The notes under the pieces: model-generated
What the model was told of the DNA's origin: nothing
Database searches by the model: none
The model's input: only the letters and a program-made list of their open reading frames with translations
In this document: piece by piece, positions 3,001-55,772 of the stretch
Position numbering within the stretch: the stretch's first letter is position 1
Layout of the letters: each line of letters opens with the position of its first letter
NCBI GenBank assembly: GCA_008632985.1
Contig: QPGO01000151.1
Span: forward strand, 124,001 to 188,000
Reading direction: 5' to 3'
DNA length: 64,000 bases
Source: Psammoneis japonica
Taxonomy: Eukaryota
Position numbers and translations under genes: made by a program

Positions 3001-6000
3001 ACAACACGTGTGAAGCAACTGAAAAAGAGCAACACGCAAGGTGTCTCTCATGCAAATGATGCCACACAAAATCAATGGCACCAAAGTGCAAACAAGAAAA
3101 TGCAAAGAGGTGGGGCCATCTGCAACAAAAGTGACTGCACAGAGCTGCAATTGTCTTGCAATGGCATGAGATGACTTTCAATGAAAACAACAGATGCCCC
3201 ATGCAGCCACAGCAAAGGTGAAAAGGGGGCTGTGGATGCTTGCAGCAGTGTGCTGCATTGTGGCTGATGTTGTGCACAGGGTGTTCATGTGCATGGATTG
3301 CATGTGCATGTGGAAGCCAGCATTGATCAATGCATGGACTTTGTGCACTTCAAATTTTTGGTTGCTTTCTGGGTTGCTTGGATGTCAGCATTGTTCACTT
3401 TGACACCGCGTGCAAAGAAATCAGCCAAAACAACACAGCAGAGTTTCTAGAACAATGGACAAAACAAAATGTCTGGCTTCTGCAAGGCACAGCAAAACCA
3501 ATGCCGCATTGTTTTTAAAGCACTGGTTTGTGCATGAAATTGCCTTGGAACCCCCAGGCAATTCAGACATCGGCAAAGTTGTTCAGATCATGTTTTTGAT
3601 GAATGCCGCCAGCAACAAAGTTGGTCATTTTCATCTGCTTGACCACTCGCTCACACTTCCCAAGAACCTGTCACTGGCAACTGCACCTGACAAAAGGATC
3701 TCATGGCTGGTGAGCTTTCCATCACTTTTGGCAAAGAATGGCTGAAGCAGCAGCTGCCCCCCCTGCTTGCCATGTGGCCAAAACACACCAGCAGCCCTTG
3801 TCCAGGATGTTTGTGGAAGAAAGCATGGAGGTTGGGTCTGTCTTTTGAAAGTGTTCTTGGCGCCACATCAGCCCACTTTTCTCCAAGCAGCCTGAGTCTG
3901 ACATTGCTTCCAGCCAAAGCTCCCAGCTGCCAAGCCACCCACAAAGTTGCAGAAAGATTCCACCTTTGACAACATTCCTGCCACAACAAAGTGAGTGCAT
4001 GAGTCACTGCAAATGTGTGTCTGTGGGATTCTCCATCAGATCAACATTTGCACTGTCCCAATTTGCAACACACTTGTTTCTGTGCTGTCCCTTCTGTTTT
4101 TCAGAGTGAAGGGACATGCCCTCCTTGTGACAAATGCATCTTGGCCACCAATTTGCTGCAGACTTCACAAGATCCAGTTTTCTTTCAAACATTTTCTTCA
4201 GATGCTTGTGGTGTCTTGAAGTGTTTCATCCATCTGTTGCAACTTGCTCCCACCAGTGGTTTGGCAGGAGCAGGTGGTGCAATTTTGGAGCCAGCAGCAA
4301 TGTTGTTGTTGCAATTTTGGCAGCAGCAGCGACGGGTGCTTTTTGATGCTGGGAGTTTTGACACCAGACTCTTTGTTCTGTTTGATGATTCCATTGCATC
4401 ATTTTGTTGCACCTCTGGTTGTGACTCTGATTCCTCCAGATGTTCTGTTGCAAGTCTTCTTTTTGCCACTGCTGCTTTTGTTCATGGATCCATGCAAGTT
4501 CTTGCTGTTTGGAACAGTTCATTGACTCTCAGCCTCAGCCCAGCATCCATCAAAGAAATGGCAGCATCAGCCAAACCATGCCCGACAATCATGGTCTCAT
4601 CCAAGCTTTGGTTGCAAACAACAGTTTTGGCAAGGCACTGCACAGCCACAATGTTGTCATGTGATCAGGGTTGGGTGATGCATCTGATTCATTTGCCACA
4701 TTTGTGGTTGGCACTGATGCTTTTTCTTCTTTCATCTTCAATGCAATCTTTGCTTTTTCCTCTGGTGAAACTCTTTTGCAGTTTTGCATTGGCCCCAATT
4801 TTTCTGGGTCAGGTGGGTCAGACAGCTTGTTCTTGCCCCTCTTGGCACCAACCGCGAATGCTTGCAGTGGCTCATGTGGTGACTTCAATTGGAGAAAATC
4901 ATCATTCTTGAAACTGGCAGCATCAATCAGTGTTGCAACAGACACTCTCAATTTTTGTTTGTTGGAAACATCTGGGCTGTTTTTCTTTTGACAGCAAAAA
5001 CAGGATGAGAACTCAACAAGAGCATGTTCTGCCAGACCATCCATCAAAAGAATTGCAAGCTTGTGTGGCACCGGAAGGCAGTGCATGCAGACATGCTTTC
5101 CTGCATCGATGGTGGTGGTCCTGCCACTCTCTGCCACCCCTGACTGATTTTCCACTCTGGCTTTACACTTGCATTTGCTGGCCAACAAATGGGGTGCAGC
5201 ACGCACAGATGACATGGCATGCATGCCATCCTTGAACTACGGCGACATTCTGTCATGTGTTGCAAGGCCCATTTCTCCATTGTGCTTGATTGTGCTCCCA
5301 TGTGCATGGAGCATTGATGGATTTTTTGGGTTGAGAGCATGTCGCACGCAGCACTTCATCAAATGCTCTCTGCTGTCAACTCTTGCTTCACTTGGACATT
5401 TTAAGAGAAGACATGGTGGCACCTCTGCACACTTTGGCAAGCTTTCATTCTTCCCAAATGTGACAAGGTCGTCTGTCAACAGGTTTGTGATGCTGCACGC
5501 AGGTGAGATTGCAATCACAAAGAAAGAGAGTGCCATCTCTAAAGTCAAAATCAGCCACAACATCAAACACTCTCTCACTCAACTCTGGCACACTGGGGTG
5601 GCACAATGGACACTGCACTTGCTCAAACAGCTTTGAAACCAAAGAGTCCATTGAGTTGCCCTCCACAATGCTGACATGTGGCTCCTGGAGATCCGCCATC
5701 GGCATGTCATTCGGCACTTCAATTTTGTTGCTTGGCACCTCCCACAATCCATTCTCTGACATCTTGGATGTGGGATCTACAGAGTCTGTTGTGGATCCAA
5801 GACAAGGGGCACACACTGCATCAGCACTGCTGGATTTGTTTTCATTTGCAACTGCGCACATTTGGCAAAAAGTCTTTTAATTTTTTCCACACTCTTGGGT
5901 GCCCTCTCCCGTCACACAAATGTGGCTGTGAGAGGAACAGGGGCCAGGGCAAATTCCAAGATCACATTCATGTGTGACTGGCCCAATGTCATCTCCACTT

Positions 6001-8025: not shown

Positions 8026-9638
8026 ATGGGCAACATTGAAGAGGGTCCCCTCGTGACGCAGGCCATGGTCTGTCCCGGCGTGGGCGAGAAGCTCGTCCTC
8101 ACGGAGATTACCCTGCCGCCCATGAAGGCCACCATGGTGCGTACGAACGCTCTTGCCCTTTTTCTCTCGTCTTCGTCATTTCGGAATACGCGCGACGCTC
8201 CGGGCCCGTTTCGACCTTCCTTCCACTACCACGTCGTTTTCCACTCCCGACTGTTCTTGCTTCTCGACTTCTTTTCTCTCCCTCTTTTTTTCCTCCGCTG
8301 ACATGCCTCTCTTCCTTCGACTCCAACAATAATAATAAAAACAGGTCGAAGTGGACGTCCAGTATTGCGGCCTCTGCCATACCGACATTCAGTAAGTCTT
8401 TTCCTTTTTCACATCGGTCGAGTGCTTTGCTTCGTCGGAAAAACGCAACTCCCTCACTTCCTGTTTTCTTTTGTCCAGCATGCGAGACAACGATTGGGGC
8501 ATTTCCAACTATCCCCTCGTGCTGGGACACGAAGGCATCGCCACGGTCCGAAAGGTTGGTTCCTGCGTCCGTGCGCTAAAGGTGGGGGACACGGTCGGCA
8601 TTACCTGGGCCCGGGATTCCTGTCTCAGTTGCGGTACGTTGCGACGCCGCATGTATGGAAGCGGGCATGCATACGCGAATAACTCGCTCACTATAATTCT
8701 GTTTTTCTCTTCTTGCCGACGATCTTATCATGCTGCATCGAATATGTAGACCCTTGCATGGAAGGCCGCGAGAACATGTAAGTAGCCGACAACCTGTAGA
8801 CCCTGAAAGAGGCAATCTTTTCATCCGAATCTCACTCTTAAACTCTACCCATGCCCCTACACTACATGGCAGTTGCGAAAAGGGCTACCAGGGCACGTAC
8901 TTGGGACCGTCGGCCGGGTGTTGGGGAAAGTCCCCGCACAATGAGCACGGCGGATGCTTCTCCAAGGTCATGCGCATCGAAGAACGCTTTGCCATCAAGT
9001 TGCCCGACAATTTGCCCCCCGAAATTGCGTGTCCCCTCATTTGCGGCGGCGGTACCGTCTTTGAGGCCGTCGTGGATTACGTTCAGTCGGGAACTCGCGT
9101 CGCCGTCGCCTCGATTGGCGGCCTCGGTACGGCGGCCATTCGCTTTTCCAAACTCTTTGGTGGACACGTGACGGCTCTTAGCCGCGGTGATGCCAAGCGA
9201 GACAAATGTCTCGGAGTCGGTGCCGACGAGTACTACGGCTGCCTTGGAGATGCCGATGCCATGAATGCGCTGGCTGGCAAGTTTGATCTCATTATCGATA
9301 CCTCGCCGGCCAACGCCGACATAGGACCGTACATGACGATGTTGAAGTTCAACGGCACCTATTGTCGCGTCGGCATTCCCCTCGCTACCGACATGACCTT
9401 CAAGTATGATTACATTCCCCTCATTTTTACGCAGAAGAAGATTGCCGGTTCAATCGTTACCGGTACGCGACGCATGAATCGGATGCTCACTCTGGCGGCC
9501 GATGAATTGGAAATGTTTGCCAGCGATCAGGAGGACTGGCAGACGGAAATTGTCCCCTTTGAAGAGGCCAATGAAGTCATGGAAAAGCTCAAGGAGGGCA
9601 AGAACGACAAGACATACCGGTACCTCTTAAAGTGGTAG
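8026..9638 (+). CDS. Zn-dependent medium-chain alcohol dehydrogenase (cinnamyl alcohol dehydrogenase-like); 5 exons: 8026-8136, 8345-8391, 8479-8633, 8750-8777, 8873-9638
   Basis: The spliced product has CGLCHTDIH and GHEG catalytic Zn motifs, structural Zn CLSCDPC..C, ACPLICGGGTVF and an IGGLG nucleotide-binding motif. All four introns are GT-AG and phase-compatible. Confidence 0.9.
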
Positions 9639-14039: not shown

Positions 14040-14205
14040 TGCAGCAACTCACTCGCACGCTTCTGACATGTGGCATTAATTTTGGATGTCAGATTAACGC
14101 AGCCGTTTGAGAGAGGCTCGCCAGCGTTCGCCAACGCTTGGGGCTCCCCTCTCTTTGGTCTACTCACTTCTTTGTTTTGACATCAGTTTTCAGCTTGAGC
14201 TTGCA
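14040..14205 (+). repeat. Gypsy 5' LTR (166 bp)
   Basis: Direct repeat of 19323-19475/27624-27635. Termini are TGCA...TGCA, probably from TGTA...TACA. Confidence 0.92.
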
Positions 14206-15655: not shown

Positions 15656-15924
15656 CCCAATGAGCTTGAAGAGCTGTCGTCCGAGTGTGTCGCTCCTGAT
15701 TTTTACATGTTTGATGATTGTGCTGATTGTGTTGATGATTGTTGTGCACATGCTGCTGATTTATTTGATGATGATGATTTTGGAAATTGTGCTGTGAATG
15801 ACGAAGACGATGTGGGACTTGAGTGCACTGCACCAACCCCAAAAACAAACCAATTGAACCATTGAATGTGGTCCCAACAACCTCATTCGCGGCGTGATTC
15901 ATTCAAGATAAGGAAAGCAAGCGC

Positions 15925-18900
15925 GTGATGCGGGCATTGCTTGATTCCGGTGGAACCCATTCAATGATTCATGCTCGGGTGTTGCCGGTTGGAGCGGTTC
16001 CAGCATTGGAAGAGACAGGACCGATTCGTGCGAAGTTTGGGACAATGGCAGGAGAATTCGAATCAACTCGTTGTGTTCGATTGCAGGACTTGGTGCTCCC
16101 TGAATTCGACAAGACCAAACATGTTGATGGCATGCATGCGCATGTGTTTGACTCACCCTGCCAGTGTGATGTGATCCTTGGACAGGACTTCTTGGCGAGA
16201 GCGGGTGTCACATTGGATTTCGAACATGGAATTGTCAAGTGGCTCGGTTCAAGCATTGCAATGAAGCCGAAGAATCAGCGGACTGGCATCCAGCAATGGC
16301 TCGATGATTTAACTGATGAACTGGCCAATGATGATGACGTGTGGGACAGTCACATCCTCAATGCAAAGCATGAGGAGACGTCCCCGTCTGAAGTGGCTTC
16401 AGCTCAGAAGCATCTCACTGCCGAACAGCAAGAGAAATTGCGTCTCGTGTTGGAGAAACACACTGCTCTTTTTGATGGCACCCTTGGCAAGCACACTGGC
16501 GAAAAAGTTCACCTTGACATTGACCCTGACGCCGTTCCGTGCCATTCTCGAGCGCGTGCAGTGCCGCACAATGATCTCGAGACTTTTGAGCGAGAATTAG
16601 ATCACTCAGTGGCTCTTGGCGTTCTTGAAGAAGCCGGAACTTCGGAATGGGCTGCAGGTGCCTTTATTCGGCCGAACAAAGATGGTCGAGTGCGGTGGCT
16701 CAGCGATTTTCGGGAACTCAACAAAGCCCTCAAGCGCAAGGTTTGTCCCTTGCCGATCATTCAAGATGTGTTGCAAAAGAGAGCCAGGTGCAAATTTCTT
16801 ACAAAGTTGGATCTCTCAATGATGCATCATGCGTTTGAACTGGACGACAATTCCAAAGATCTGACGACAATCGTGACACCCTTTGGAAAGCATCGATGCT
16901 GCCGTCCAGCAATGGGTTTGAAGCCGGCTCCAGATGTTGCGCAATGCTTGATTGAGAAAACTGCACATGACTTGGACGTTGACGCACACATTGATGATCT
17001 CGCTCAATTTGATGACAATTTTGACACTCACCTTGCTCGTCTCAACAAACTCCTGCAACGTTTGGAAGAAGCTGGATTTAAAGTGAACCCTTTGAAATGT
17101 GAATGGTGTGTGCAGGAAACGGATTTCCTTGGGCATTGGCTAACTCTGACTGGAATTCGTCCGTGGAAGAAGAAAGTGGAAGCCATTCTGCGAATGCAAC
17201 CTCCGGAAAATGTCAAGCAGCTTTGTTCGTTTCTTGGTGCTGTGACATGCTGTCGCAACATGTGGCCTCGGTGTTCTCACTTGTTGAAACCTTTGACAGA
17301 TCTCACAGGCAAAGGCTCGTGGACGTGGACAGCAGATTGTCAGGCAGTGTTCGAAGAGATGAAAGCAGCACTAGCGGCCGAGACGTTGATGGCGCACCCG
17401 CATCACAACAAACCCTTCCACATCTGTGCCGATGCCAGTGATCACCAAATGGGCGCAGTGATTGTACAAGATGGAAAACCTGTTGCACATTGGTCTCAAA
17501 AGCTGAGCGCGGCGCAACAAAACTGCTCGACGATCGAAAAAGATTTCTTGGCCATTGTCATGTGCTTCCGCGAATTCCAAACAATGCTCCTTGGCGGCGA
17601 CTTGCATGCATTCACCGACCACAAGAACCTTGCCTTTCGCACCTTAAGTTCACAACGTGTGCTCCATTGGCGCCTCTTTCTGGAAGACTTTGCCCCTCAA
17701 TTCCATTGTGTCGAAGGCCGCTTGAATGTCTTGGCTGATTGTTTTTCTCGTTTACCTCGCATGGATCCTCCCTCTGAAGGGAAGAGTTTGGCTCTGGGTG
17801 AAGGAACTGTTGTTGATTTTGCTCCGCTCGATTCGAAGTTGGTGCCGAGTGAGGAACCATCCGAAGTCGAGGATTTCCGCGATGAGGACTTGGAGCTCAG
17901 CGCATGCCGATTCAAGTGTTGTCGCAACATTGAAAATGAAGGCCACTCACACTTCTTCTCTTTCTTCGTTGATGAGCCGGAGCTGTTTGATTCCTTTTTG
18001 AATTGCCCCATGATGCAGGAGATGCAAAATCCAATGACGTTACAACGGATTCAAGAGCACCAGTTCGAGGACCAACAATTGAACCAGATGCGCATTGCTC
18101 ACCCTGATCGTTTCCTTGTGGAACATGTGAACAATCGACCGCTTGTGTGTCATCGTGTGCGACCAAATGATCCTCCAGGACAGTGGAAAATCTGTTTGCC
18201 GACTGCGCTTGTGCCCGACATCTTACGGTGGCATCATCTCGTTCTTGGCCATGCCGGAAGCCAGCGCATGCGTGAAACAATCCAGGCTCATTGTCATCAC
18301 CCTGGGTTGCATTACATGTGTGATGAATGTTCTTGTGCTGATTGCCAACGTGACAAAACTTTGGGTCCTGGCTGTGGAGAACTGCCCAAACGAGAAGATC
18401 AATTGACTCCCTGGTCGGAAGTGGCGGTTGACCTCATTGGCCCGTGGAAAATCAAAGTGCCGAATGGAGAGATTGAGTTTCGCGCGTTGACCTGCATTGA
18501 TCCTGTCTCTGATCTTGTTGAACTGGTGAGGATTGAGAACAAAACTGCTCGACATGTTGCCAACCAATTCGAAAACTGCTGGCTTGCACGCTGTCCCAGA
18601 CCGAATCGATGCATCCACGACAACGGCGGCGAGTTCACCGGGTGTGAGTTTCAGATGCCATTGCAGCGAGCCGGAATTGATGATGCACCGACCACTTTGT
18701 ACAACCCTCAAGCCAACACCATTTGTGAACAAATGCACCAGACTGTCGGCAATGTGTTGCGCATGCTCATTGCTTCTGATCCACCTCAAAACCTTCAGGA
18801 TGCAGCTGGCCTCGTGGACGATGCTTTGGCAACTGCAATGCATGCAACCCGTTGTGCTGTTTCCCGTTCCTTGCAGATTTCACCAGGTGCTGTGGTGTTT

Positions 18901-19362
18901 GGATGTGACATGATCTTGGACATCCCAGCACTGGCGGATTTGTTGACGATTCAAGGCCATCGCCAGATGCTGATCAACGACAACTTGCGAAAAGCCAATG
19001 CAAAGAGAAGATCCTGCGATTGTCAAGTGGGCGATCAAGTTCTAATCAAGCACATTGAGCCATCCAGACTCAAGCCTCGTGCTCATGGTCCTTGTCCTGT
19101 TGTTCAAGTGCATGTAAATGGCACACTCTCGGTTCGTCGAGCTCCTCATGTGGTTGAGCGCCTCAACATTCGGCGCCTGATTCCTTTTTCGCGGTTGATC
19201 AGGGGGTTTTCTTCCCAACACCTGGGTTTCCTCCTGTTGTTGTCTTTGCTTTTGGTTTTTGGTCCTTGGTTTTTGGCCCTTTGCATGATCCTCCAGTTCT
19301 TTCGGATCATGGAAGGGAAGAGTGCAGCAACTCACTCGCACGCTTCTGACACACAGCATTGA
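15925..19362 (+). pseudogene. pol: Gypsy pol (protease, RT, RNase H, integrase); frame open but conserved Tyr residues destroyed
   Basis: ALLDSG protease; DFRELNK; RT HIDD in place of YIDD; RH ICADASDHQMG; integrase VDLIGPW and IHDNGGEF. Only 2 Tyr in 1145 aa. The true C-terminus probably lies near 19190. Confidence 0.92.
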
Positions 19363-19475
19363 TTTTGGACATTGGATCAACGCAGCCGTTTGAGAGAGGC
19401 TCGCCAGCGTTCGCCAACGCTTGGGCTCCCCTCTCTTCGGTCTACTCACTTCTTTGTTTTGACATCAGTTTTCAG

Positions 19476-19753
19476 TGACAGGATTTGAACAGGATTTGGG
19501 TGCGTGCGAAGCATCGCGCGCTGTTTAGTTTGCCGCGCACAGTTTTTGTGTGCTTTAGTTCCGCGTGTTCACGCGCGATGTAGTTTGCTTTCGAGCCACA
19601 AGGCTCACAAGAATGACAACAGTGGCCCGATTGTGCCGACTTACACGTCTTTCGGCTCCTGCAACGGTCTCTGAGCGGAGACTTGTCTGCCATTTAGACA
19701 GCAGTGAGGAGTTGTTGTTTTGAATTCTTGCCATTTGCCTTCAATTTCTGTCA
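19476..19753 (+). repeat. Copia 5' LTR
   Basis: Direct repeat of 27342-27618 with terminal inverted hexamers. Confidence 0.93.
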
Positions 19754-22700
19754 GATTGACAGTCTTGCTCATTGTCAACCCATTGAGCAACCGCCATCAT
19801 CGTCGTTGATTTACCAACGACGCCACCTCAATCCTGCGTGGACCTCCACGCACATTCTACATGCACCGGCAAGTCTGCGCGCATTCAATGCCAGGGCATC
19901 GGCAGGAGGTTAACGGTCAAGAACCCCACACATTCAAGGATCTTAGTCGCTGAAGACATGCGCACACACACATGTCTTCACGGCCAAGAACCTTTACCCA
20001 CTCTTCGGACTGCAGTTTTGCTGCCACTCTACAAGCACACCGAGTCCATTGCACCTGATCTACCCCGGACCACTGGTGCCCCACAGTTCTGCCAGGTCCA
20101 CGAGGACGACTGTGAGAGCAAGCAGCCGTGATTACAGCCTACGGTGGGGCGAGGGTGCTTTCCCGCGTTTGTTCATTCGTCCACAGCGCCTGACGCCTGT
20201 GTCAACTGGCCAGCCTGATTGGGAAATCCAACCGACATAAAATGAGAACGGTTCGGGGGTCTTGTCCACCTCTAGTCAGCTTACCTGCAGGGGTTTACAA
20301 CCCGCTACTCCGCTCATAAGCAACCCAAAGCGCCACCAGCTGCGGGTTCGGACGTGCCGGCACAACTCTACGGACCGGATGGGAAGTTTAGCACTTGACA
20401 ACGAACGGGACAGCAAAGCCCGGCGACTTCTGATTTTAAGATAGTTCAAGATTTCAAGTCAAGTCCATTTCAAGTCAAGTCTATTCTCACCCAAGTTTCG
20501 AGTCTACCTTCGCTTCCCAACCAGAATTGATTGTCCTGACACCACTTTTGTCTACCATGGTTCTCACTCGTCAGCAACAAACCGATGGTTTCGAGCACGT
20601 TGTTGGAACCGTGCTTGCCCAAGGTGCTGGGAGTCCTCTTCGTTTGGCTTTGGCCCAAGACGGCACGGACTCGCATCAGGAACTATTCACGTTCATGCCG
20701 TCCCAAATCGACTCGCTTGAGTGCGACAACGGCACCAATGTGATCCCTTTGCCCCGTGGTTATAAGAACATGTTAGCAGCACTGGTTGGTCTGTAAATTG
20801 TCAAAGCACACAAAGGTCTTGACGTTGCCAACGACTCCTCTTTGTTCACGCATGACGAGTTCCTTGCCTGCTGCCTCAGCCCCGACCACATGTCTTCTGT
20901 GTCCATCGGCAGCTCACCCCTTGCACCTCCGCATGTCACCAACCCGACCAAGGCACGCGACCCGGTGCGGGACTTCAAGCGAGGCATCAAGCGTGATCCC
21001 ACCGCTTTCACGGCTCTCAAATCCGACAAGCAGTGGCACACTTGGCACACCTCACTTGTGGCACAAGCCCGTGCCCAAGACGTCGAGTGCATTCTAGACT
21101 CGTCACACAAACCGACCAGCCCCGAAGACAAACTGCTCTTTGCTGAACAGCAAAAGTGCATGTTCGCCGTCTTCGAACGCATCCTTCTCACCGACAAGGG
21201 CAAGGCTCTCATTCGCGAAAATGTGGGGTCTTCTGACGCACAGACCGTCTGCCGCGCCTTGTCTGAGTGCGCGCTTGCCTCCACCCGCGCATCTGTCGAG
21301 TCCTCCACCCTGCTCACGTGCCTCACCACCGCACGTCTTGGTGATGGCACTTAGAAAGGTCCGACCCACGGGTTCATCCTTCATTGGCAAGATCAGTTGC
21401 GCAAGTGCGAGGCACTCATCCCGGCCAGTGACCACTTCTCTGAAGGACAGAAGCGCGTCATGCTCGAGAATGCCGTGCACCCTGTCAAGGAACTCCGTGC
21501 TGTCAAGAACCAAGCTGATCAGCATCGTACGCAGAGTGGCAAGAGCCTCACATGCGATCAATGCTGTGGCTTGCTCCTCTCCGCGGCAGCTCAGCACGAC
21601 AGCACGTTTCAACCCAAGACGACACCTCGAGCTCCCCGACGCGCCACACACGCACACGACGTCTGCTCCGAGGAACCGTCCGACGATGTGTTCTACGACA
21701 TTGACAGCGACATTGACGTCCTTCAGGCCAATGCTGCCTGCACCCGCGGTCCCAGCCTCACCGGTGACCAGTGGAGACATCTCCCTCCCGACCACCAATG
21801 GCTCTGGGATTCGTTGCCCGATTCCTCCAAGGCGATCATCCTTGAGCATTCTCGTCCGCCTCCCTGCAACCCGCGAGCCAGCAACTGCCATGAGTCTGTT
21901 ACGGCCAACCTTCACGACCAACGCCTTGGGAGTGACGGTGATGTCAACTTGTCCAACACGACTCCTGCTGACTCTGGTGACTCCGCTCCACATGTGGACG
22001 CCACTTCGGACAATCCCATCCTGGCGCACCTCACCAAGCGCAAGCCACTGCCACCCGGTGATCTGCAACGTCTGTTGTCTCCTAACCAAGCCCCCAATGC
22101 CAGTCGACCGGGGCCATCCACCGCTTCCTCCACCCCGCCAGCTTCTGCAGATGCCACAGAACTTAACGGCCGCACTTGCCGCCGTGTTGACAACCACAAT
22201 GTCATTTGCTCTGCCTCTGCTCATCGCTCCACACGCACTGGCACTCTAGTCAATCGTGGGGCCAACGGCGGCATTGCTGGCGACGACTTTCGCGTCATTG
22301 CACACACCTCTCGCCAAGTCGACGTTCAGGGCATTGACGATCATCAATTGGTGGACATCCCCATTGTCACCGCTGGTGCCGTCATTGAGACCCAGCGTGG
22401 TCCCGTCATCGCCATCCTCCATCAGTGCGCATGCACGGGCAAGGGCAAGACCATCCATTCCTGCAGCCAGCTCGAATGGCACAAACAGGATGTCAACGAT
22501 CGCTCTGTCAAGGTGCCCAACGGCTTGCAACGCATTGCCACTCCTGATGGCCATGTCATCCCCATTGACATCAAGGCTGGCCTGCCTCATGTTGCCATGC
22601 GACCTTACACTGATGCCGAATGGGACACCCTGCCCCATGTCATCCTCACCGGTGATGAAACATGGGACCCTTTTGTCCTCGATCACTCTGTCACTGACGA

Positions 22701-25142
22701 CGACCAGTGGCACGACGCGATCTCTGACCTGCAGGACGATCCCACTGCCAACCCATTTGACGAATGCGGCAACTGCCGTCATCGTGTCGTTGTCAACGAG
22801 ACCATCATGTCCGCTTCCTTGTCTGCCGATCACGCGTCCGCCCTCGATGATCACCTCACTCCGAACGACGACGTGTTCTACGAGTGTCATCTGCATGCGA
22901 TTGACCCCAAGGGCGATGACGTTCCACCTCCGGAGCGCACTGTGCAGCCCAAGGACCCCCCCTTCGAGTCTCTTCGGCCTTGCTTTGGCTTCCTGCCTGC
23001 CGATGCGGTCCGTCATGCTTTTGACTGCACCACGCAGTGCGCCCGCATGCCCGCCGGCACACACCTTCGCAAGGCCTGCAAATCACCCAACCCCGCCCTT
23101 AATGTGCACCGCCGCAACGAGCCCATCGCCACTGACACCGTTTGTGCCGACACCCCGGCCGTCGACTCTGGTTGCACCAGCGCCCAACTGTTTGTTGGCA
23201 CCGAGTCTACCGTCACTGACGTCTGCGGCACTGAGACGGACAAAGAGTTTGTCAACACACTCGAGGATCAGATCCGTGAACGTGGTGCCCCATCCAAACT
23301 CATTGGCGACCGTGCTCAAGTTGAGATCAGCAACAAAGTGCTCGGGATCCTGCGCGCCCTCTTCATCTCCAGCTGGCAAAGTGAGCCTCACCAGCAACAC
23401 CAAAACTTTGCCGAGCATCGACACCAGACCGTGAAGCACATGGCGAACACTGTCATGGATCGTTTTGGTTCGCCCGCCCACACATGGCTGCTGGCGCTCA
23501 TGTGCATGTGCTTCACACTCAACCATGCAGCATCCCCACGTCTCCACTGGCGCACGCCCCTCGAGACTCTCACTGGCTCCACCCCGGACATCAGCCCATT
23601 GCTTCGCTTTCACTGGTGGGAACCCGCGCACTTCCACCTCGATGACTCCGATTGGCCACCCGAATCCCGTGAGTTGCGTGGACGCTTCGTTGGCATTGCT
23701 GAGCACGTCGGCCACCAGATGACCTTCAAGATTCCATCTGACGAGACTCAGAAGATCCTCTGCCGGTCCAACGTCCGCTCCGCTGCCCCCGATCCTGCCG
23801 TTCGAAACCTGTGTCTTGATCCTCCTGATGGGGAGCCACCTGAACCCATCATCAAATCTCGCCATGACGACAACCCCGTCGATTCTCCTGATGGGGAGAT
23901 CAGGACACCCAAGATGCCAGTTTTCGATCCGCAAGACATCATTGGACGCACCTTCCTCATGCAGCCACAAGAGGACGGACAACGCCACAGAGCTCGCATC
24001 GTCAAGGCCATCGAAGACCACGAATGGAAAGTGAACGGCAATCCCGAGCTCACTGGGTTCGTCTGCTCTGTCAACAATGACGAATGCGAGGAAGTCCTTG
24101 CCCACAATGACGTCATGAATCACATTGAGCAAGAAGACGAAGACACCACTGTTTGGAAATTTCGATGCATCGTGTCACACGAAGGACCTCTGAAGCCTCA
24201 CGACCCAACCTGGAAAGGCTCCAGCTACAACATCATGCTTGAATGGGAAAGTGGGGAGGTCACGTCCGAGCCTCTTGCCATCATCGCCAAGGACGACCCC
24301 GTCACCTGTGCCATCTGTGCACAAGAGAACGGACTCCTCGACACGGATGGCTGGAAGCGGTTCCGCACCATCACGAGGCGCCAAAAGAAGCCATTTCGCA
24401 TGGCCAACCAAGCCAAGCTTCGCTCCTTCCGCACTGCACCTCGCTGCAAGTGCGGGTGCGAAGTTCCCCGGAACTGCAAACACGCCATGTCACTGGACGA
24501 ACGCAACGGCAACCACAAGTGGGGAGATGCAACTAATCTCGAGATGGACCAACTCGACGAATGCGAAGTCTTCTATGACTGCGGGCCCTTCAACTCTTCC
24601 ACTCCTCCTGCGGGACACAAGAAGATCCGAGTGCACCTGGTGTGCGACGTGAAACACGACGGTCGCCACAAGGCACGACTCGCAGCCGACGGGCACCTCA
24701 CGGACGCACCTGTCGACAGTGTCTGCTCCGGAGCAGTCTCCCTCCGTGGCCTTCGGCTGATGATTTTCCTGGCCGAACTCAACGAGTTGGAGACATGGGC
24801 CACCGACATTGGCAATGCCTGCCTTGAAGCCACCACCAAGGAGAAGCTTTGCATTGCAGCTGGACCCGAATTTGGCAAACTCGAAGGACACATCCTTGTC
24901 ATCCACAAGGCACTGTGTGGACTGCGCAGCTCCGGTCTCCGCTGGCACAAGCGCTTCGCCGACTGCCTGCGAGCTGAAGGCTTCTTCCCCTGCCGCGCCG
25001 AACCCGACATTTGGGTGCGCAGGAACGGCGACCACTGTGAACGCATTGCCGTTTATGTGGATGACCTCGCCATTGCCATGAAGGACCCTCAATCTTTGGT
25101 CGACACTCTCACGGAAAAGTGCAAGTTCAAGCTCAAGGGTGC

Positions 25143-25725
25143 CTGGGTTCAAATCATCAACGGTCCTCGCACCATGACAGGATTTAAACAAGATTGACCA
25201 ACTCGATTAAATCCGACCCATCAACCTGAAAAATTGCGATACCCAGGAATCGAACCTAGGTCCTCTTACAACCGGTTACCGACTAAACCATTTGCCGCTT
25301 TCTTCAAACTGACAGGCTTTTTGTACACAGTCACACATGTTTCAGCCAGAGAGTGACACACACCTTTAATTCTTCTTAGAATTCTGTCACTCCCCACAGG
25401 TCACGAAGCTGTCTGACGTCACGAAGCTGTCTGACATCACGAAGCTGTCTGACGTTCCTTTCTTTGGACAATGATGCTTCTCACAGCTCCCCTTCTACCT
25501 GGGCCACATTTTTCTGCACACGCCATGACCTCCCCGGCGAGCTGACAATTGGGCGGCCATTCCGGCCTCGGCATCCCTAATGAGAGCACTGTGTGCATCG
25601 TCGGTCTGTCTCACTGCAGCTTCTCCTCAGTTTTAGAGTCATCTTGAAGGAGCACACACACCTGGGTTCAAATCATCAACAGCCCTCGCACCATGACAGG
25701 ATTTAAACAAGATTGACCAACTCGA
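25143..25725 (-). mobile_element. TRIM-like non-autonomous LTR element fragment (LTR end - PBS - ~300 bp interior - PPT - full LTR - PBS)
   Basis: On the minus strand: GGGGAG PPT (25395-25390), 215 bp LTR 25389-25175 with TGACAG...CTGTCA ends, and PBS TGGTGCGAGG after both LTR ends (from 25174 and 25693). The interior is non-coding with a 3x18 bp tandem repeat at 25401-25454. Confidence 0.75.
25235..25298 (-). ncRNA. tRNA-derived Pol III-type cassette lacking a normal anticodon arm, inside the TRIM LTR
   Basis: Minus strand reads GCGGCAAATGGTTTAGTCGGTAACCGGTTGTAAGAGGACCTAGGTTCGATTCCTGGGTATCGCA followed by ATTTTT. It has an A-box-like TGGTTTAGTCGG, a B-box GGTTCGATTCC in a T-stem, a partial acceptor stem and an oligo-T terminator. 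Confidence 0.65.
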
Positions 25726-27341
25726 TGAGTGCGAAGTCTTCCATGACTGCGGGCCCTTCAACTCTTCCACTCCTCCTGCGGGACACAAGAAGATCCGAGT
25801 GCACCCAGTGTGCGACGTGAAACACGACGGTCACCACAAGGCACGACTCGCAGCCGACGGGCACCTCACGGACGCACCTGTCGACAGTGTCCACTCCGGA
25901 GCAGTCTCCCTCCGTGGCCTTCGGCTGATGATTTTCCTGGCCGAACTCAACGAGTTGGAGACATGGGCCACCGACATTGGCAATGCCTGCCTTGAAGCCA
26001 CCACCAAGGAGAAGTTTTACATTGCAGCTGGACCCGAATTTGGCAAACTCGAAGGACACATCCTTGTCATCCACAAGGCACTGTGTGGACTGCGCAGCTC
26101 CGGTCTCCGCTGGCACGAGCGCTTCGCCGACTGCCTGCGAGCTGAAGGCTTCTTCCCCTGCCGCGCCGAGCCCGACATTTGGATGCGCAGGAACGGCAAC
26201 CACTGTGAGTGCATTGCCGTTTGTGTGGATGACCTCGCCATTGCCATTGAGGACCCTCAATCTTTCATCGACACTCTCACGGAAAAGCACAAGTTCAAGC
26301 TCAAGGGTGCGGGACCCATTGAGTTCCATCTGGGTTGCGACTTCTCCCGGGACCCCGACGGAACCTTGTGCCTGTCTCCGCGCAAGCACATCGAGCGCAT
26401 GGTCGACAGCTGCACCCGACTGTTTGGGGAGAAACCTGCCACCAACGCCCTGTCACCTCTAGAGAAGGGTGACCACCCCGAACTGGACACTTCCGAACTG
26501 CTGGGACCCGATGGCATTCACAAGTTCCAGTCTCTTGTTGGTTCACTCCAATGGGCAGTGTCCCTTGGTTGAATTGACATCACCACGGCCGTCATGTCAC
26601 TCTCTAGCTTCCGAGCTGCGCCCCGTCAAGGCCACTTGGATCGTGCCAAATGCGTCTGTGGGTGCCTCTCCAAGATGCAACATGGTGCTCTCCGCGTTCG
26701 CATGGAAGAGCCCGACTGTTCGGATCTCCCTGCTCCGGCCCATGAATGGATGCATTCCGTGTGTGGTGAAGCAGAAGAGATGATCCCGAAGGACGCTCCA
26801 CCGCCCCTTGGCAAGTTCGTCACTGCCACCCACTACGTTGATGCAAACTTGCACCATTGCATGCTCACCGGACGCTCTGTCATGGGAATGCTCCACTTCC
26901 TCAACAAATTCCCGGCTGATTGGTTCTCTAAGAAACAAGCCACCGTGGAGACTGCGACCTGCGGGTCTGAATTTGTTGCCGCAAGGACTTGTGTTGAGCA
27001 GATTATCGACCTGCGCATCACCCTGCGCTGCCTTGGTGTCCCGATCTGTGATGTTAGTTACATGTTCGGTGACAACAAGTCGGTTGTAGACAGTGCCACC
27101 ATCCCGCACTCCAAGTTACACAAGCGACACACCGCACTGTCGTTCCACCGTGTGCGTGAGGCAATTGCCTCTGGCCACCTTGAGCTCCACTTCATCGAAG
27201 GCTCCCGCAACCCTGCTGACATTCTCAGCAAGCATTGGGGTCACTCCCAAATCTGGGACCTTCTCCGCCCCCTCATGTTCTGGAACTTCATTCCATCCGA
27301 AGTCGAATCTGTTTCTGTGGCTCCTCAAACAAACTGGGGAG

Positions 27342-27618
27342 TGACAGGATTTGAACAGGATTTGGGTGCGCACGAAGTGTCGCGCGCTGTTCAGTTTACC
27401 GTGCACAGTTTTGTGTGCTTTGGTTCCGCGCGTTCACGCGCGATGCAGTTTGCTTTCGAGCCACAAGGCTCACAAGAACAACGACAGCAGCCCGATTGTA
27501 CCGACTTACACGTCTTTCGGCTCCTGTAACGGTCTCTGAGCGGAGACTTATCTGCTATTTAGACAGCAGTAAGGAGTTATTGTTTTGAATTCTTGCCATT
27601 TGCCTTCAATTTCTGTCA
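27342..27618 (+). repeat. Copia 3' LTR
   Basis: Direct repeat of 19476-19753. Its right half retains ancestral TpA. Confidence 0.93.
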
Positions 27619-28664
27619 TTCAGCTTGAGCTTGCAGTCGCCGCAAAAGCGTGGAAAGTCTGTCGCGGATACTTTCCACTTTATTAATAATATTCATATAT
27701 ATCAAAATATATGAAATTATTAAAATGTTATGAATAACTTATATTTTCCTTTTTATATTGCCCTTACAACCTAAGTAATTTTGGTTCGCAACCGTTGAGT
27801 GATAATGTTTTATATATAGTGATAAGGTGTTCATTAAAAGAGGGTCATTATGACCGTTTTTGATCAATGACTTTCCACGATAGAATTACATCGTGGCTAT
27901 CGTGGAAAGTGAAGACTTTCCACGATACTATCGTGGAAAGTCATATGACTTTCCACGATGACTTTCCACCTTTCGAGGCTTATGTAAATGCCCGAAAAAT
28001 AGGGTCATATGACAAGATTTTGATCTCATCACAACGCCTTGATGCTTATAAATCTTGCCATTTTCCAACATGATTTTGGAACAACTAGTTCAAGAGCCGG
28101 GCTCGGTCTCGTCAGGAGGCCTTCAATGCACGCATCAAGAACTTCGCATGCCTTTCGGAGACGTTTCGCCACGGCATCAAGAAGCATCGACGATGCTTCG
28201 AGGCCGTGTGCGTGATTGCGCAATACCAGTTGGAATGTGGCTCACCCCTCTTTGACATTTAAAAGTGAGTGACGCCACATCACGAAGTTTCTAGTCATTA
28301 ACATTTAACAAATGACTTTCCACGATCATTTGTCATTAATGACTTTCCACGATATTTAACGACTTTCCACGATAGCATCGTGGAAAGTAAAGACTTTCCA
28401 CGATAGAATTGAATCGTGGAATACTTTCCACGATGCGACTACCTTCCGTTGAATTATGACTGCATTAAATAAACGTTATACACAGTAATTAAATGTGTTT
28501 TAATTAATGGGGCAGTGAGTATTTTTTCAACGGACAGTGAGAGGGCAATATATGGATTCAGGTGTCCTGTTCACGTAATCCCATAGTATATTCTATACTG
28601 AGAAGTGCGAGCGTGTCCACTACGACACTCAACGTACTTTCCACGCTTTTGCGGCGACTTCCAG

Positions 28665-30300
28665 GCCAATGGTTGGTGCATTGTCATGCCTTGCCCAAGC
28701 AGCAAGGAACCAACCCAAGGCATGGTTTGTGCTTGGTTGCATCACCGCGCCACCTCAGGCAGTGACTGATCAGTCCTTCACCAGCAAGCCGCCTTTGGCT
28801 GGACCATTGCAATCCAAGGGTCTCCACTGGTTGAGATTGTGCTGGCCCCATTTGTGGGTGCTTGCCCTCTTCATGTTGAGCTGAAGCCTGTGGAGCTCTG
28901 TTCCTTGTGAGGTTCATTTGCTGGGCAATCAAATTTTGCAGCCTTTCAAGTTGCGCTGGTGCAGACAACTGGTGTGACAACAAGTCTTTGGCAAGGCTCC
29001 ACTGCAACTTTCAGCAATTCATCCTGCCAAAGGCAATTGAGTCACCCAATCTGGAGCAAGACTGCCACCTTCGACACCGTGGCACTGACATCCTTTCACC
29101 TGATTGGGGTGTCATCAACAAGATTCACCAGACCACCATTGACATTGCCTTGTCATTGGATGCCTCCTCCTCCAGCCAAGCAGCTGCAACAGAATGGGTC
29201 AAAGGCCGCCAAGATTGGATGGCTCCAGTCTCATCCCTTCCTCTCAATGCCAAGGCAAACATCAGAGCTGAAAAGCCAGCTGGGAGATGCCAGCAACAGC
29301 ACTCTTCTGACACCTCTGTGGTTCTTCCATTGCCTCATTGCCAGGTGCCTCTCAATGTTGTGGATGGAACAGTTGATGCTGGATTGAAGGCAATGGTGAG
29401 GTGCACAACTGCAGCTCCTGCCTTCCTGGAACACATTAGAGAATGCAACAGATGAGACAACTCTGTCACTGACAAATCAGATTGGAAGCTTCATGCCTCT
29501 CTGGTGTGCAGATTTTCTTGCAAACACGTGTCCACTGTCAAACTCATTCACAAACTCCTTCCTGCAAACAAGATTGTGAGCCAACACAATCCAGTGCCTC
29601 CTCATGCATCGCTGTTTTTGTTGTGCGAGTCTCCATTTGAAGATCAGGATCACATTCTCCAATGCCTGGACAGCGAGCATTGGTGATGCACTTTTCCGCA
29701 GGGCCTCCACAAACAATGCAACAAAATTGACACTGAGCCACCATTGTGTGATCTTCTGCTGCGTTCCATCAAAGCTTGGTTTCAGGACACCATGGAATGC
29801 AAATCTGACATCACTTCTGTGCTCCAACCTCTGTGTTGTGTGCAAACTGACATTGGTTGGCAACAACTTTTCAATGACCGTCCCTCATTGTTGTGGAACA
29901 CTCTTGTCAAGAAATGCATCTTTGTGAACCAGGCCTTCTTGCAAAATCCCAGAGAGAGATTGGTCCTCTGCCAGTGTGGGTGGCGCAAATTGGCGCTCAC
30001 ATTTGGAACTCCCGGTGAGAATTGTGGAAAGCTCACAACAAAGCAATGCATGGGCATGGCAAAAATGCCAGGAAATCACCCCAACGACAATGTGCCGAGG
30101 CTGAGCTCACAGCCATTTGCAACAAACGACAAGAACACCTGGCCAAAGGCAGCAACAAACTGTTGGACTCCATCAAGGAACATCTGTCATTTGTTGCCTC
30201 CCAGATTCTGAATTGGATTGCTGTGGTGAAACCATGTCTAAAGGAGAGCCAGGGCTGGCATTGCTGGCAAAGGAGTGACAGCAGCACTTGAAATTTGGGT
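28665..30300 (+). mobile_element. Degenerate non-LTR retrotransposon 3' region (RNase H-like and C-terminal Cys/His domains)
   Basis: Frame fragments PSSC*AEACGAL (cf. SSYRAEAYG), WCDNKSL, LSPDW, WVKGRQD (cf. WVKGHQD), EDQDHILQC, QTDIGWQQLF and WKAHNKAMHG. Confidence 0.7.
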
Positions 30301-41488: not shown

Positions 41489-43419
41489 ATGACGCTTTTC
41501 GATGAAGAGAGCGTCCCCGCAAAGCCGGCTTTGACGCATGAGGCCAAGCCTGCTAAGAAGGTGTCTTCCCTTCGTAAATGGGGACCCGCTATGGTTGCAG
41601 TCGGCGCTGTCCTTGCCTTCAACGGAGCCATGATGGGACCTACTGGATGCCGCATTCCTGAGCTTAGTGACGCCCAGGTCAGCAGCCGTAATCTGGCCGA
41701 AGCGCGTACCAAGGCCATTCTTGAAATGGACTACGATGTCAATGCCGACACCAAGCACTACCCGTCCCGAAATCTAAGTGAAGAGGACGGCGGAAACATG
41801 GAATACACCAGACGTCGCCATCGGTATTTGGGAGAGTATGTTCACATTGATGTGTCTGACCAGTTTTCTGCTTTCGGAAAATGGTCCACTGCAGTCATTT
41901 ACTTCGCATACTGGGTATTCCTCATGTTCCCCAACTGGTTTCTTCCCATTGGACGTCCCGGTATCGCCCTTGGCGGTGGACTTACCATGGTCGTCTGGCG
42001 TTACATCTTGCTGGTTGCCGGACAGGGTCCTGCCTTCGATGCTGAGCGCGTCATTATCATGGAGCCTCTTTTCTCCTCTTTGGTCTAATGCTTACCACTA
42101 TCTACCTCGAGAAGATGGAGCGCGGAGGACTCTTTGACAAGCTTCGAGACTCGCTCGACGACCCAGTCAACTGGAAACGTTCTGCCAAGATTATGGCCAT
42201 GTCTACGATTGGATCCGCCGCTGTCATGAACGACTCTATTGTGTTGATCTTCTCCGGTGTCGTCGTCGACCTTTGCGTCCGTCACAAGGTGGCCAACTCC
42301 CTCCCATACCTACTCTCCCTTGCCACTACAGCCAACATTGGTTCTGCGTTGACCCTCACCGGTAACCCGCAGAATATCTTGATTGTGTCTCTTGCTTATG
42401 ATGACATTGGCTGGCTCGAGTTTGCCGTGAACATGCTTCTCCCCGTTACTGCTGCCACCCTTATCAACGGCGCAATGATGTTTATCTACTACGCCGCTGA
42501 GCTCTTCCCTGGTTCCTCTGGATTCATGGAGAACTTGGGTATTATCTTTGCAGGAAACCGCACTCCCGAGATGCTTGCTCAAGAACACGCCTACTACGCT
42601 CGCCAGGCCGCTGCCAAGGAAGGTCAGCCCGCGGAAGAAGAAAACACTGGCTGGACTATTTGGTCGAAGATTCAAGTGGTTATTGTCATTGTCTTTCTTA
42701 TTTGCTTTGCTCTTGGATTTGACGTGTGTGTTGTGTCCATCTGCGCTGGTGCCATTCTTATGGTTATCGCTGCGTACAAGCGTCAGCACTATGATCCCCG
42801 TCCCGACACTACCGAGTACGATGCCGAGGGCAACCCACTACCTCCCAAGAAGACCTACGACATGGATGGTAACGAGATTGAACCTGAAGAAGAAGAGCTC
42901 GTCACCGAATCAGAGACCACGCTCACCGAGGTGGATTACGGTCTTTTGATGCTTTTCATTGGCCAGTTCCTCCTTATTGGTTCTTTTGATGACACTGGTG
43001 TCCCACAAGCTTTCTTCAGTCTTTCCATGGGAAGCTGTGCGGAACAGATGACAAGCGTTCCATGTGTTTACTGGTTCGTGATCATTATCACCATCCTCTC
43101 CAACGTTGCGTCCAACGTTCCTGTTTGCCAGATGCTTGCCGCTACCTTCCCTTATGCAAGCCCCTACGATTGGCTTCAGGTTTCTTTCTCAGCGACGATT
43201 GCTGGTAACTTGACTATGCTCGGATCTGCCGCCAACATGATTGTTGCCTTCCAGGCTGCCAAGGTTGGCGACCGTACGTTTACCTCAGAACGTCATGCAC
43301 CCTTTGGTATCCCATCGACTCTTATTTGCCTTTACGCTGGTACCTTTTTGCTTTCCACCTTCCACTTCATTCCCGAGTGTTCCGAAAGGCTTGGAGAGTG
43401 TGACAACGCTGCTGAGTAA
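41489..43419 (+). CDS. Lsi2: Lsi2-like silicon efflux transporter (ArsB/NhaD/citrate transporter superfamily); apparent 1 bp frameshift near 42073
   Basis: FLPIGRPG, ANIGSALTLTGNPQNILI, LSNVASNVP and TIAGNLTMLGSAANMIV motifs, with many TM segments. Adding one base near 42073 joins the two ORFs as EPLFLLFGLMLTTIYLE. Confidence 0.85.
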
Positions 43420-55005: not shown

Positions 55006-55772
55006 CGCAAAGTTAAAATTCACTAAGGACAGACAGACAGACTTTTCAATAATTATCTTGGTACTGTTCTACACATTTCTACGTAAATGACTCTACAGCG
55101 CGAAAGATTGCTATTGAGATGTTTCTGCTGCAAAAAGTCTGTCCATCGTGAGCAAGCGACAACTCATCAATCGATATTTTCAAGAACTTATAATATTTAT
55201 GCTTATTAATTGCCGGAAATTCCCACCCAAATTTGTATTCATATCTTAATTTGTCAAATTGATACTCCTACCAATGCTGATTTACGTGGCCATCTAGTAC
55301 TAATGTACGCAACGGCGATCACGCACATGTATTATGTGATATTACATCACGATGGTTTCTTAATGAACGTAGAACTGAAAAAATGTTGACCACGTAGGTT
55401 CCTACGTGCTATGTACAGAAGATGTACTGCACAGTACCGGCATGCAACCCTGCCGCCAGCCTGACCTGCTTGCCATGCACGCTTCTCACAGTTCACCCCT
55501 CGCGAAAATTGCCACGCACACGCAAACCCACAGACACAATGCTGACAAAGCCGTTCGGATCCGGACGTTGAACGAGAGGAGAGTGTTTTGCCACGATAGA
55601 TTCATAAACCAAGAACGACCAAGTCCCGGTTCCAGTTGCTCTTCTAACGCGAAGAACGACGCTCAACTGTTCTAAATCGATTCGTATTGACGTTGTATCA
55701 ACCGACGAAAAGTTTGTTGCACACACGAACACTCGATAGATCGCCGAATTCAAATCTATAATAGTACACACC

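Follow-up and report, generated by a model that had tools for sequence, protein, structure and literature searches.

Does a 215-bp stretch in the genome of the diatom Psammoneis japonica belong to a small retroelement whose LTR carries its own Pol III promoter, and could the same LTR supply the element with a primer to start reverse transcription? This question arises from an earlier note, made from the sequence alone, which described a TRIM-like LTR containing a tRNA-derived cassette. The window, that is the whole stretch of DNA analysed here, comprises 64,000 nt of assembly GCA_008632985.1 (contig QPGO01000151.1, positions 124,001-188,000, forward strand). It holds one complete LTR of this kind and the last 33 nt of another (25726 to 25694), and no copy with two LTRs and target-site duplications. 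We consider it on balance probable that these 215 bp are a true LTR and belong to a family of small LTR retroelements of the Helenus/TRIMp3 type, present in multiple copies in a diatom, in which a decayed tRNA gene is most likely the Pol III promoter; the assignment to Helenus is made by description.

The sense strand of the small element is the minus strand of the window, and its LTR, PPT, PBS and cassette all lie on that strand. The parts of the element, leaving the cassette aside, are the following:

25175..25389, minus strand: complete LTR, 215 bp, TGACAG...CTGTCA, from T25389 to A25175, with 6-bp inverted ends
25395 to 25390, minus strand: PPT-like GGGGAG, adjoining the LTR upstream
25174 to 25165, minus strand: PBS-like TGGTGCGAGG, TGG-type, adjoining the LTR downstream
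25142..25164, minus strand: leader that follows the PBS and extends to the Copia RT breakpoint (direct-repeat search; the X2 contig introduced below continues here into the internal domain)
25390..25660, minus strand: internal domain, 271 nt, including the PPT GGGGAG at 25390-25395
about 25400-25453, minus strand: three 18-bp tandem units inside the internal domain
25661..25693, minus strand: second copy of PBS and leader, 33 nt, within the repeat of 25142-25207 (64/66 identical)
25694..25726, minus strand: last 33 nt of an upstream LTR copy, ending at a 12-nt microhomology GACCAACTCGAT with Copia

On the minus strand the sequence reads ...CCTGTGGGGAG, then TGACAGAATTC...(215 bp)...AAATCCTGTCA, then TGGTGCGAGGACCG..., and the LTR first proposed, 215 bp long with TGACAG...CTGTCA ends between GGGGAG and TGGTGCGAGG, is borne out on this strand. 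The plus-strand orientation was ruled out, there being neither a purine tract before the LTR nor a TGG after it on that strand. The unit measures 519 bp, made up of the LTR (215) and of PBS, internal part and PPT (304), and a canonical element is predicted to have a length of 215+304+215 = 734 bp.

Within this LTR lies a short tRNA-like region that reads in the same direction as the element:

25298 to 25235, minus strand: tRNA-like cassette of 64 nt at LTR positions 92-155, with acceptor, D and T arms and with 8 nt in place of the anticodon arm
25279..25290, minus strand: A-box-like TGGTTTAGTCGG in the D arm (RF00005 alignment)
25256 to 25246, minus strand: B box GGTTCGATTCC, 11 nt, exact (pattern scan)
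25233 to 25229, minus strand: TTTTT (T5), Pol III terminator-like, one base past the discriminator A

Over its full length (positions 1-71), the tRNA model of Rfam, RF00005, can be aligned to 25298 to 25235, with 8 nt in place of the 17-nt anticodon arm. In this alignment the D arm (GGUU/AACC) and the T arm are intact, and the acceptor stem keeps 5 of its 7 pairs, one of them G-U. The B box is the sole match to GGTTCGANTCC in 64 kb, where 0.08 would be expected and 8 of 100 shuffles had one. The A-box-like TGGTT...CGG has one mismatch to the TRGCY...YGG quoted by Kojima (PMC10886601, in the part of the text available). The test against tRNA models, suggested beforehand, came out divided: the model aligns over its full length, but its 13.1 bits stay under the gathering score, which is 29 (101 bases searched against 4227 families, E = 2.2), and the Rfam scan of 1001 bases gave no tRNA match. 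ARAGORN found 0 tRNA genes across the 64-kb window, and with the anticodon arm gone and the score below the gathering level the cassette does not qualify as a functional tRNA gene. Its predicted fold (-20 kcal/mol, z = -1.66) is not better than that of shuffles, 10 of 200 folding equally well. The reported inventory is confirmed, with an A-box-like element, a B box within the T arm, a partial acceptor stem and an oligo-T but no proper anticodon arm, and the A-box-like element, the perfect B box and T5 form, as far as sequence can tell, a tRNA-derived unit of Pol III type in the LTR. We conclude that the cassette is a decayed tRNA gene which most likely acts as an internal Pol III promoter.

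Evidence from other copies comes from contigs of three sequencing runs (X1, X2 and X3) made on one sample, which may be that of the assembly itself and so gives no independent support. Fitted at 80% likeness to a 1001-base stretch, 568 contigs of X1, 1 of X2 and 1 of X3 were retained. The existence of further copies, on which the initial reading depended, is supported in this one sample by contigs that have the same LTR and other flanks. Among the matches listed, two X1 contigs diverge from the window precisely at the LTR boundary, 25175, and one contig ceases to fit at 25392. The X2 contig links 25660 to 25142 and continues to 25239, which is the order of internal part, PBS and full LTR expected of an intact element. 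Summed depth, which is not a copy number, amounts to 271-3024 per bin over the insert formed by the small element (LTR bins 902-3024; internal bins 271-1730) and to 38,138-85,849 per bin over the Copia parts, the short bin at the end having 17,241. Among the eight X1 contigs listed, six have a depth of 43.5-68.4, and contig depth, taken only as a rough guide, suggests several to tens of copies of the small element. No second copy occurs within the 64-kb window, and no two-LTR copy with target duplications was seen among the contigs listed or in the window, where the copy ends in the leader and inside an LTR and so has no LTR-to-target junction. Within the LTR only four positions (25241, 25328, 25359 and 25360) vary in at least 10% of the depth; the first of these falls within the cassette, and the A box and the B box contain none. 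The conservation asked of these two boxes is thus found at this threshold among the contigs. However, the family looks young, given its few variants, so that unvarying boxes say little on selection.

Beyond this sample, exact patterns spanning the B box to T5 and the LTR end plus PBS gave 0 loci each in JGI metagenome contigs. Two viral-contig loci, L001 and L002, that fitted a T-arm/acceptor pattern were dropped, as ARAGORN found no tRNA in either; around the match in L001, nothing is alike beyond the pattern itself. The loose-end strings of other copies, including the 30-letter end of the X2 contig, have no match in the window. Three kinds of variant were also observed: in one contig 25172-25234 is present twice, separated by GTG, two contigs carry other letters (ending ...GGAAAC) in place of the PBS and leader before the LTR edge 25175, and one contig is without one of the three 18-bp units at 25400-25453.

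The cassette might have no function at all, being a dead tRNA-gene or SINE fragment caught in an LTR, with the element transcribed by Pol II from the 91 bp that precede the fragment. We regard this as unlikely. The sub-threshold tRNA score and the deviant A box are in agreement with such a fragment, and the insertion of a SINE into the LTR of a TRIM has been proposed as the origin of Helenus (Kojima 2024, PMC10886601, in the text available). T5 directly past the cassette should halt much Pol III transcription before the element gets transcribed, and the apparent youth of the family means that the kept boxes prove little. On the other side, the B box is perfect over 11 nt and the D and T arms are intact where the anticodon arm has been lost, and this is the pattern expected if the promoter parts alone had been kept, and the cassette, T5 and the order PPT-LTR-PBS all have one orientation. 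On the sense strand of the 519-nt unit no further run of four or more T occurs in 449 nt, which would also argue for a Pol III transcript but is not significant; T-run depletion was dropped as a Pol III sign because 32% of 5000 shuffles equal it.

It is quite unlikely, in our judgement, that the element is not miniature, i.e. that its LTR is part of a longer retrotransposon of LARD-like or autonomous type, and that the 304-bp internal part is a deletion derivative. This possibility is brought up by the X2 contig (1183 nt), which has the LTR, the PBS and 84 nt of leader and is then, past 25577, unlike the window for 1001 nt; the LTR and leader consequently also occur with another, longer internal part. 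That part may be a longer relative, possibly coding, or a nested insertion. The summed depth over 25478-25613, a segment missing in the X2 contig, is 836-1730 and no lower than the 385-1238 of the shared leader, which indicates that the short form is not rare.

As a short element with a probable tRNA-derived promoter in its LTR, the family is best compared with Helenus, a group of TRIMs whose LTRs hold tRNA-like sequence with conserved boxes A and B (Kojima 2024, Biology 13:119, PMC10886601). Helenus elements are 311-1263 bp long, with PBS and PPT, and are grouped with Cassandra and Ajax as TRIMp3. In fungi they have 5-bp duplications and depend on Copia, in animals 4-bp duplications and depend on Gypsy; in zebrafish they occur in tandem arrays (LTR-11_DR). 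The small element shares with them a short LTR of 215 bp with a tRNA-like piece that keeps boxes A and B (A with one mismatch), a PBS and PPT around a short non-coding internal part, a predicted 734 bp that falls in the range of 311-1263 bp, a cassette unlikely to encode a working tRNA, and dispersion in multiple copies, as judged from contigs of one sample. Its probable dependence on Copia recalls fungal Helenus, and its tandem arrangement recalls LTR-11_DR. It differs in the deletion of the anticodon arm and in the T5 terminator directly past the cassette. The discussion in PMC10886601 holds Pol III transcription from the Helenus LTR to be unproven.

The host sets the small element apart as well. 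Helenus has been reported from fungi, six animal phyla and the lycophyte Selaginella, and the words 'diatom' and 'stramenopile' are absent from the available text of PMC10886601, whereas the small element resides in a diatom. No report of TRIMs or Helenus in diatoms was found among the matches listed, in a weak search in which 'trim' also stood for 'trimmed'; a sugar-beet study, in the part available, names Helenus in passing. As far as searched, the small element is a Helenus-type element new for diatoms. If this holds, TRIMs with tRNA promoters are extended to diatoms as a fourth major eukaryotic lineage, and a diatom member supports the repeated origin of such elements. It also follows that tRNA-like matches in diatom genomes may be LTR-borne.

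The LTR had initially been likened to Cassandra, the plant TRIMs that have a Pol III promoter and terminator derived from 5S rRNA in the LTR (Kalendar et al. 2008, as cited in the available part of PMC10886601). The analogy is sound in so far as the small element is a tRNA counterpart of Cassandra, both being miniature elements whose LTR contains a small-RNA gene with its internal promoter and its terminator, and both forming tandem arrays, but the exact counterpart had already been named Helenus within TRIMp3 (PMC10886601). In contrast to Cassandra, the cassette is tRNA-like and not 5S, and the host belongs to a different kingdom; Rfam scans of 1001 and 101 bases gave no match to a 5S family at E up to 10.

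The small element lies within a Ty1/copia element of the window, which had been put forward as the family of its autonomous partner:

19476..19762, plus strand: 5' LTR of the host Ty1/copia, followed by GATTGACAGTC, with no TGG-type PBS
27342..27618, plus strand: 3' LTR of the host Ty1/copia, preceded by ...TGGGGAG
19471-19475 and 27619-27623: TTCAG target duplication of the host Copia

The two Copia LTRs are 92.4% identical, with an RVT_2 domain between them. The agreement of the ends and of the PPT is real: TGACAG...CTGTCA and TGGGGAG|TGACAG in the host Copia are the same as in the small element, both elements having the GGGGAG tract. At one terminus the two are identical in 19 of 21 positions, a score reached by 0 of 300 shuffles. 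The partnership itself is less straightforward, since this 19/21 match pairs the PBS-side end of the small element with the PPT-side end of Copia, and since the PBS differs, Copia having GATTGACAGTC... after its 5' LTR where the small element has TGGTGCGAGG. A Copia of the general kind with TGACAG/CTGTCA ends would be a reasonable helper, a suggestion that extends to the kind and not to the particular Copia family of the window. The sequence GATTGACAGTCTTGCTCATTGTCAA (19763-19800) follows the 5' LTR of the host Copia and contains no TGG-type PBS. An internal tRNA site, known from some Copia lineages (fungal examples in PMC10886601), may serve as its primer.

Taken together, we propose a life cycle in which the RNA of the element would start at the cassette of the 5' LTR, read through the weak T5 there and terminate at that of the 3' LTR, giving a repeat (R) of about 65-70 nt. 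Minus-strand synthesis would be primed by a host tRNA with the 3' end ...CGCACCA, and the proteins would be provided in trans by an autonomous Copia with TGACAG/CTGTCA ends.

A bolder idea is that the cassette itself encodes the primer. As originally pointed out, the cassette end ...TATCGCA with CCA added pairs with exactly 8 contiguous PBS bases, from the first PBS base onwards; without CCA, no part of the LTR is complementary over at least 6 bases to the first 20 nt past the LTR. The Pol III RNA of the cassette would be cut after A25235, given CCA, anneal to the PBS of its own element and prime minus-strand DNA, a scheme that we consider very doubtful. Its more specific form, in which a 64-nt anticodon-less mini-tRNA is trimmed and CCA-tailed by host tRNA enzymes and anneals to TGGTGCGA beside the LTR, strikes us as a similarly long shot. 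The scheme gains from the fact that the cassette end is fixed independently by the tRNA model (position 71 = 25235), that a complete Pol III unit with terminator suits a separately made small RNA, and that variation of at least 10% is absent among the contigs at the PBS and at the last 5 bases of the cassette. The acceptor and T arms, which are what tRNA 3'-processing and CCA-adding enzymes recognise, are largely kept, and the anticodon arm is lost.

Nevertheless, 3 of the 8 paired bases are the universal CCA/TGG, which leaves 5 informative ones and a chance of about 1 in 1000 at a fixed position, a figure to be discounted because a striking pattern was freely chosen for report. The pairing ends at base 9, a tract of 8 nt is at the low end for a PBS, and the acceptor stem of the cassette has two mismatches. 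Ordinary tRNAs that end in ...CGCACCA are common in eukaryotes (Phe and Gly types). A further tRNA, a tRNA-Leu which we take to be that of E. coli, ends in CCUCGCACCA. As given in the accessible part of the appendix of PMC13363220, this tRNA-Leu would pair with 10 PBS bases, so that genuine tRNAs can outdo the 8 of the cassette. [quoted passage not shown] If the scheme were true, the small element would be the first LTR retroelement known with its own primer gene. It offers a compact test case for an LTR-borne tRNA-like RNA as primer, with an anticodon-less cassette, its own terminator and an 8-nt PBS match. In self-priming of the Tf1 type, the genomic RNA of the element folds back so that its own 5' end lies on the PBS and serves as primer. 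The small element would, if the scheme were true, likewise take its primer from the element and not from a host tRNA, but unlike in Tf1 the primer would be a separate Pol III-made tRNA-like RNA needing CCA addition, of which no description was found in the literature searched.

The copy in the window does not have the form of an ordinary insertion. It is enclosed by two copies of one segment of the host Copia:

24559..25141, plus strand: Copia RT segment, first copy, 561/583 identical to the second; RVT_2 profile cut at 195 of 244
25727..26309, plus strand: Copia RT segment, second copy, 561/583 identical to the first and continuing into the rest of pol

Between these 583-bp segments lies an insert of 585 bp, or 1.13 units of the 519-bp repeat of LTR and internal part. 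The order is RT segment (24559-25141), repeat r (25142-25207), the rest of the LTR to 25389, internal part (25390-25660), repeat r again (25661-25726) and RT segment (25727-26309), where r comprises 66 nt of leader, PBS and the last 33 nt of the LTR and its two copies are identical in 64 of 66 positions. At the junctions there are 12 nt of microhomology (GACCAACTCGAT, 25715-25726), common to the LTR and Copia, and about 1 nt at 25141/25142. Neither end of the insert is an LTR end, hence the local copy was not placed by integrase; it is a rearranged fragment and not an integrase-made insertion. The order of its parts identifies the insert, at the level of sequence, as a portion of either an LTR-internal-LTR tandem array or a circle with one LTR. 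Most likely, a microhomology-mediated template switch in the course of DNA repair or replication would have copied it between the Copia RT segments, and the same switch at the DNA level would also have duplicated the 583 bp of Copia. A tandem or circular form of the small element would then have been used as filler in a duplication within another retrotransposon.

That the LTR features coincide by chance, or that the block in its entirety arose by the mis-joining of Copia copies, is very improbable, for although the window has one complete LTR only, no contig among the matches listed (568 X1 contigs fit) bridges the two Copia junctions and the differences between the RT copies could mean two distinct Copia copies, the PPT, the TG...CA inverted ends, the PBS, the tRNA model match and T5 stand in register and the same LTR recurs with other flanks in other contigs.

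Several of the differences between the two RT copies consist of TG in one and CA in the other at the same dinucleotide, which fits TpA decay. The observed/expected ratio of TA is 0.08-0.19 in Copia, 0.22 in the internal part of the small element and 0.55 in its LTR; gene blocks and one young-looking element have 0.64-0.81. The LTR is thus far less TA-depleted than the surrounding Copia. Along the window in 2-kb steps, the ratio is 0.02-0.17 in most repeat blocks and 0.64-0.73 in the gene blocks (8-10 kb, 40-44 kb and 56-62 kb), and tyrosines of the Copia are read as Cys or His, with decay of TpA to TpG or CpA.

Regarding the leader (GGGTTCAAATC...CCTCGCACCA on the plus strand), its reading as a read-through copy of a primer tRNA was rejected, because the leader exceeds the required length by 4 nt and lacks a T stem. 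Its 33-nt length is not a natural unit, since the breakpoint sets it, and an Rfam scan of the PBS and leader (25110-25180) gave no match.

Other repeats accompany the Copia in the window. Directly past its 3' LTR, a block of about 1.05 kb (27619-28670) has 34-nt TIRs (27625-27658 and 28636-28669, 88%), a second inverted pair of 46 nt and repeated GACTTTCCACGAT motifs. With a GC of 0.40 and a TA observed/expected ratio of 0.79, against 0.01-0.2 in the flanking repeats, this block resembles a young DNA element, of foldback or MITE-like type, that has been spared TpA decay. On the other side, a Ty3/gypsy pol frame (15898-19362, plus strand) with protease, RVT_1, RNase H and integrase stops shortly ahead of the 5' LTR of the Copia. 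A direct repeat of 103 nt (14040-14142 and 19323-19425, 90%) may mark the Ty3/gypsy LTRs, in which case the Copia lies at or in the 3' end of the Gypsy element. Between 45376 and 48012, direct repeats 1429-1500 bp apart and 80-91% identical (D3, D7, D9, D11, D13 and D14) constitute a tandem duplication of about 1.45 kb.

The window also contains host genes, as identified by Pfam: a zinc-type dehydrogenase (8697-9635, plus strand), a CitMHS/NhaD-like transporter (42046-43416, plus strand), a class I/II aminotransferase (55740-57302, plus strand) and a CCT-motif protein (61366-62355, minus strand). The product of 42046-43416 is 87-92% identical to proteins labelled as coming from Bacillariaceae sp., Nitzschia inconspicua, Pseudo-nitzschia multistriata and Seminavis robusta, by which the host would be a raphid pennate, Bacillariaceae-like diatom; relatives are named 'silicon efflux transporter LSI2' in some sources.
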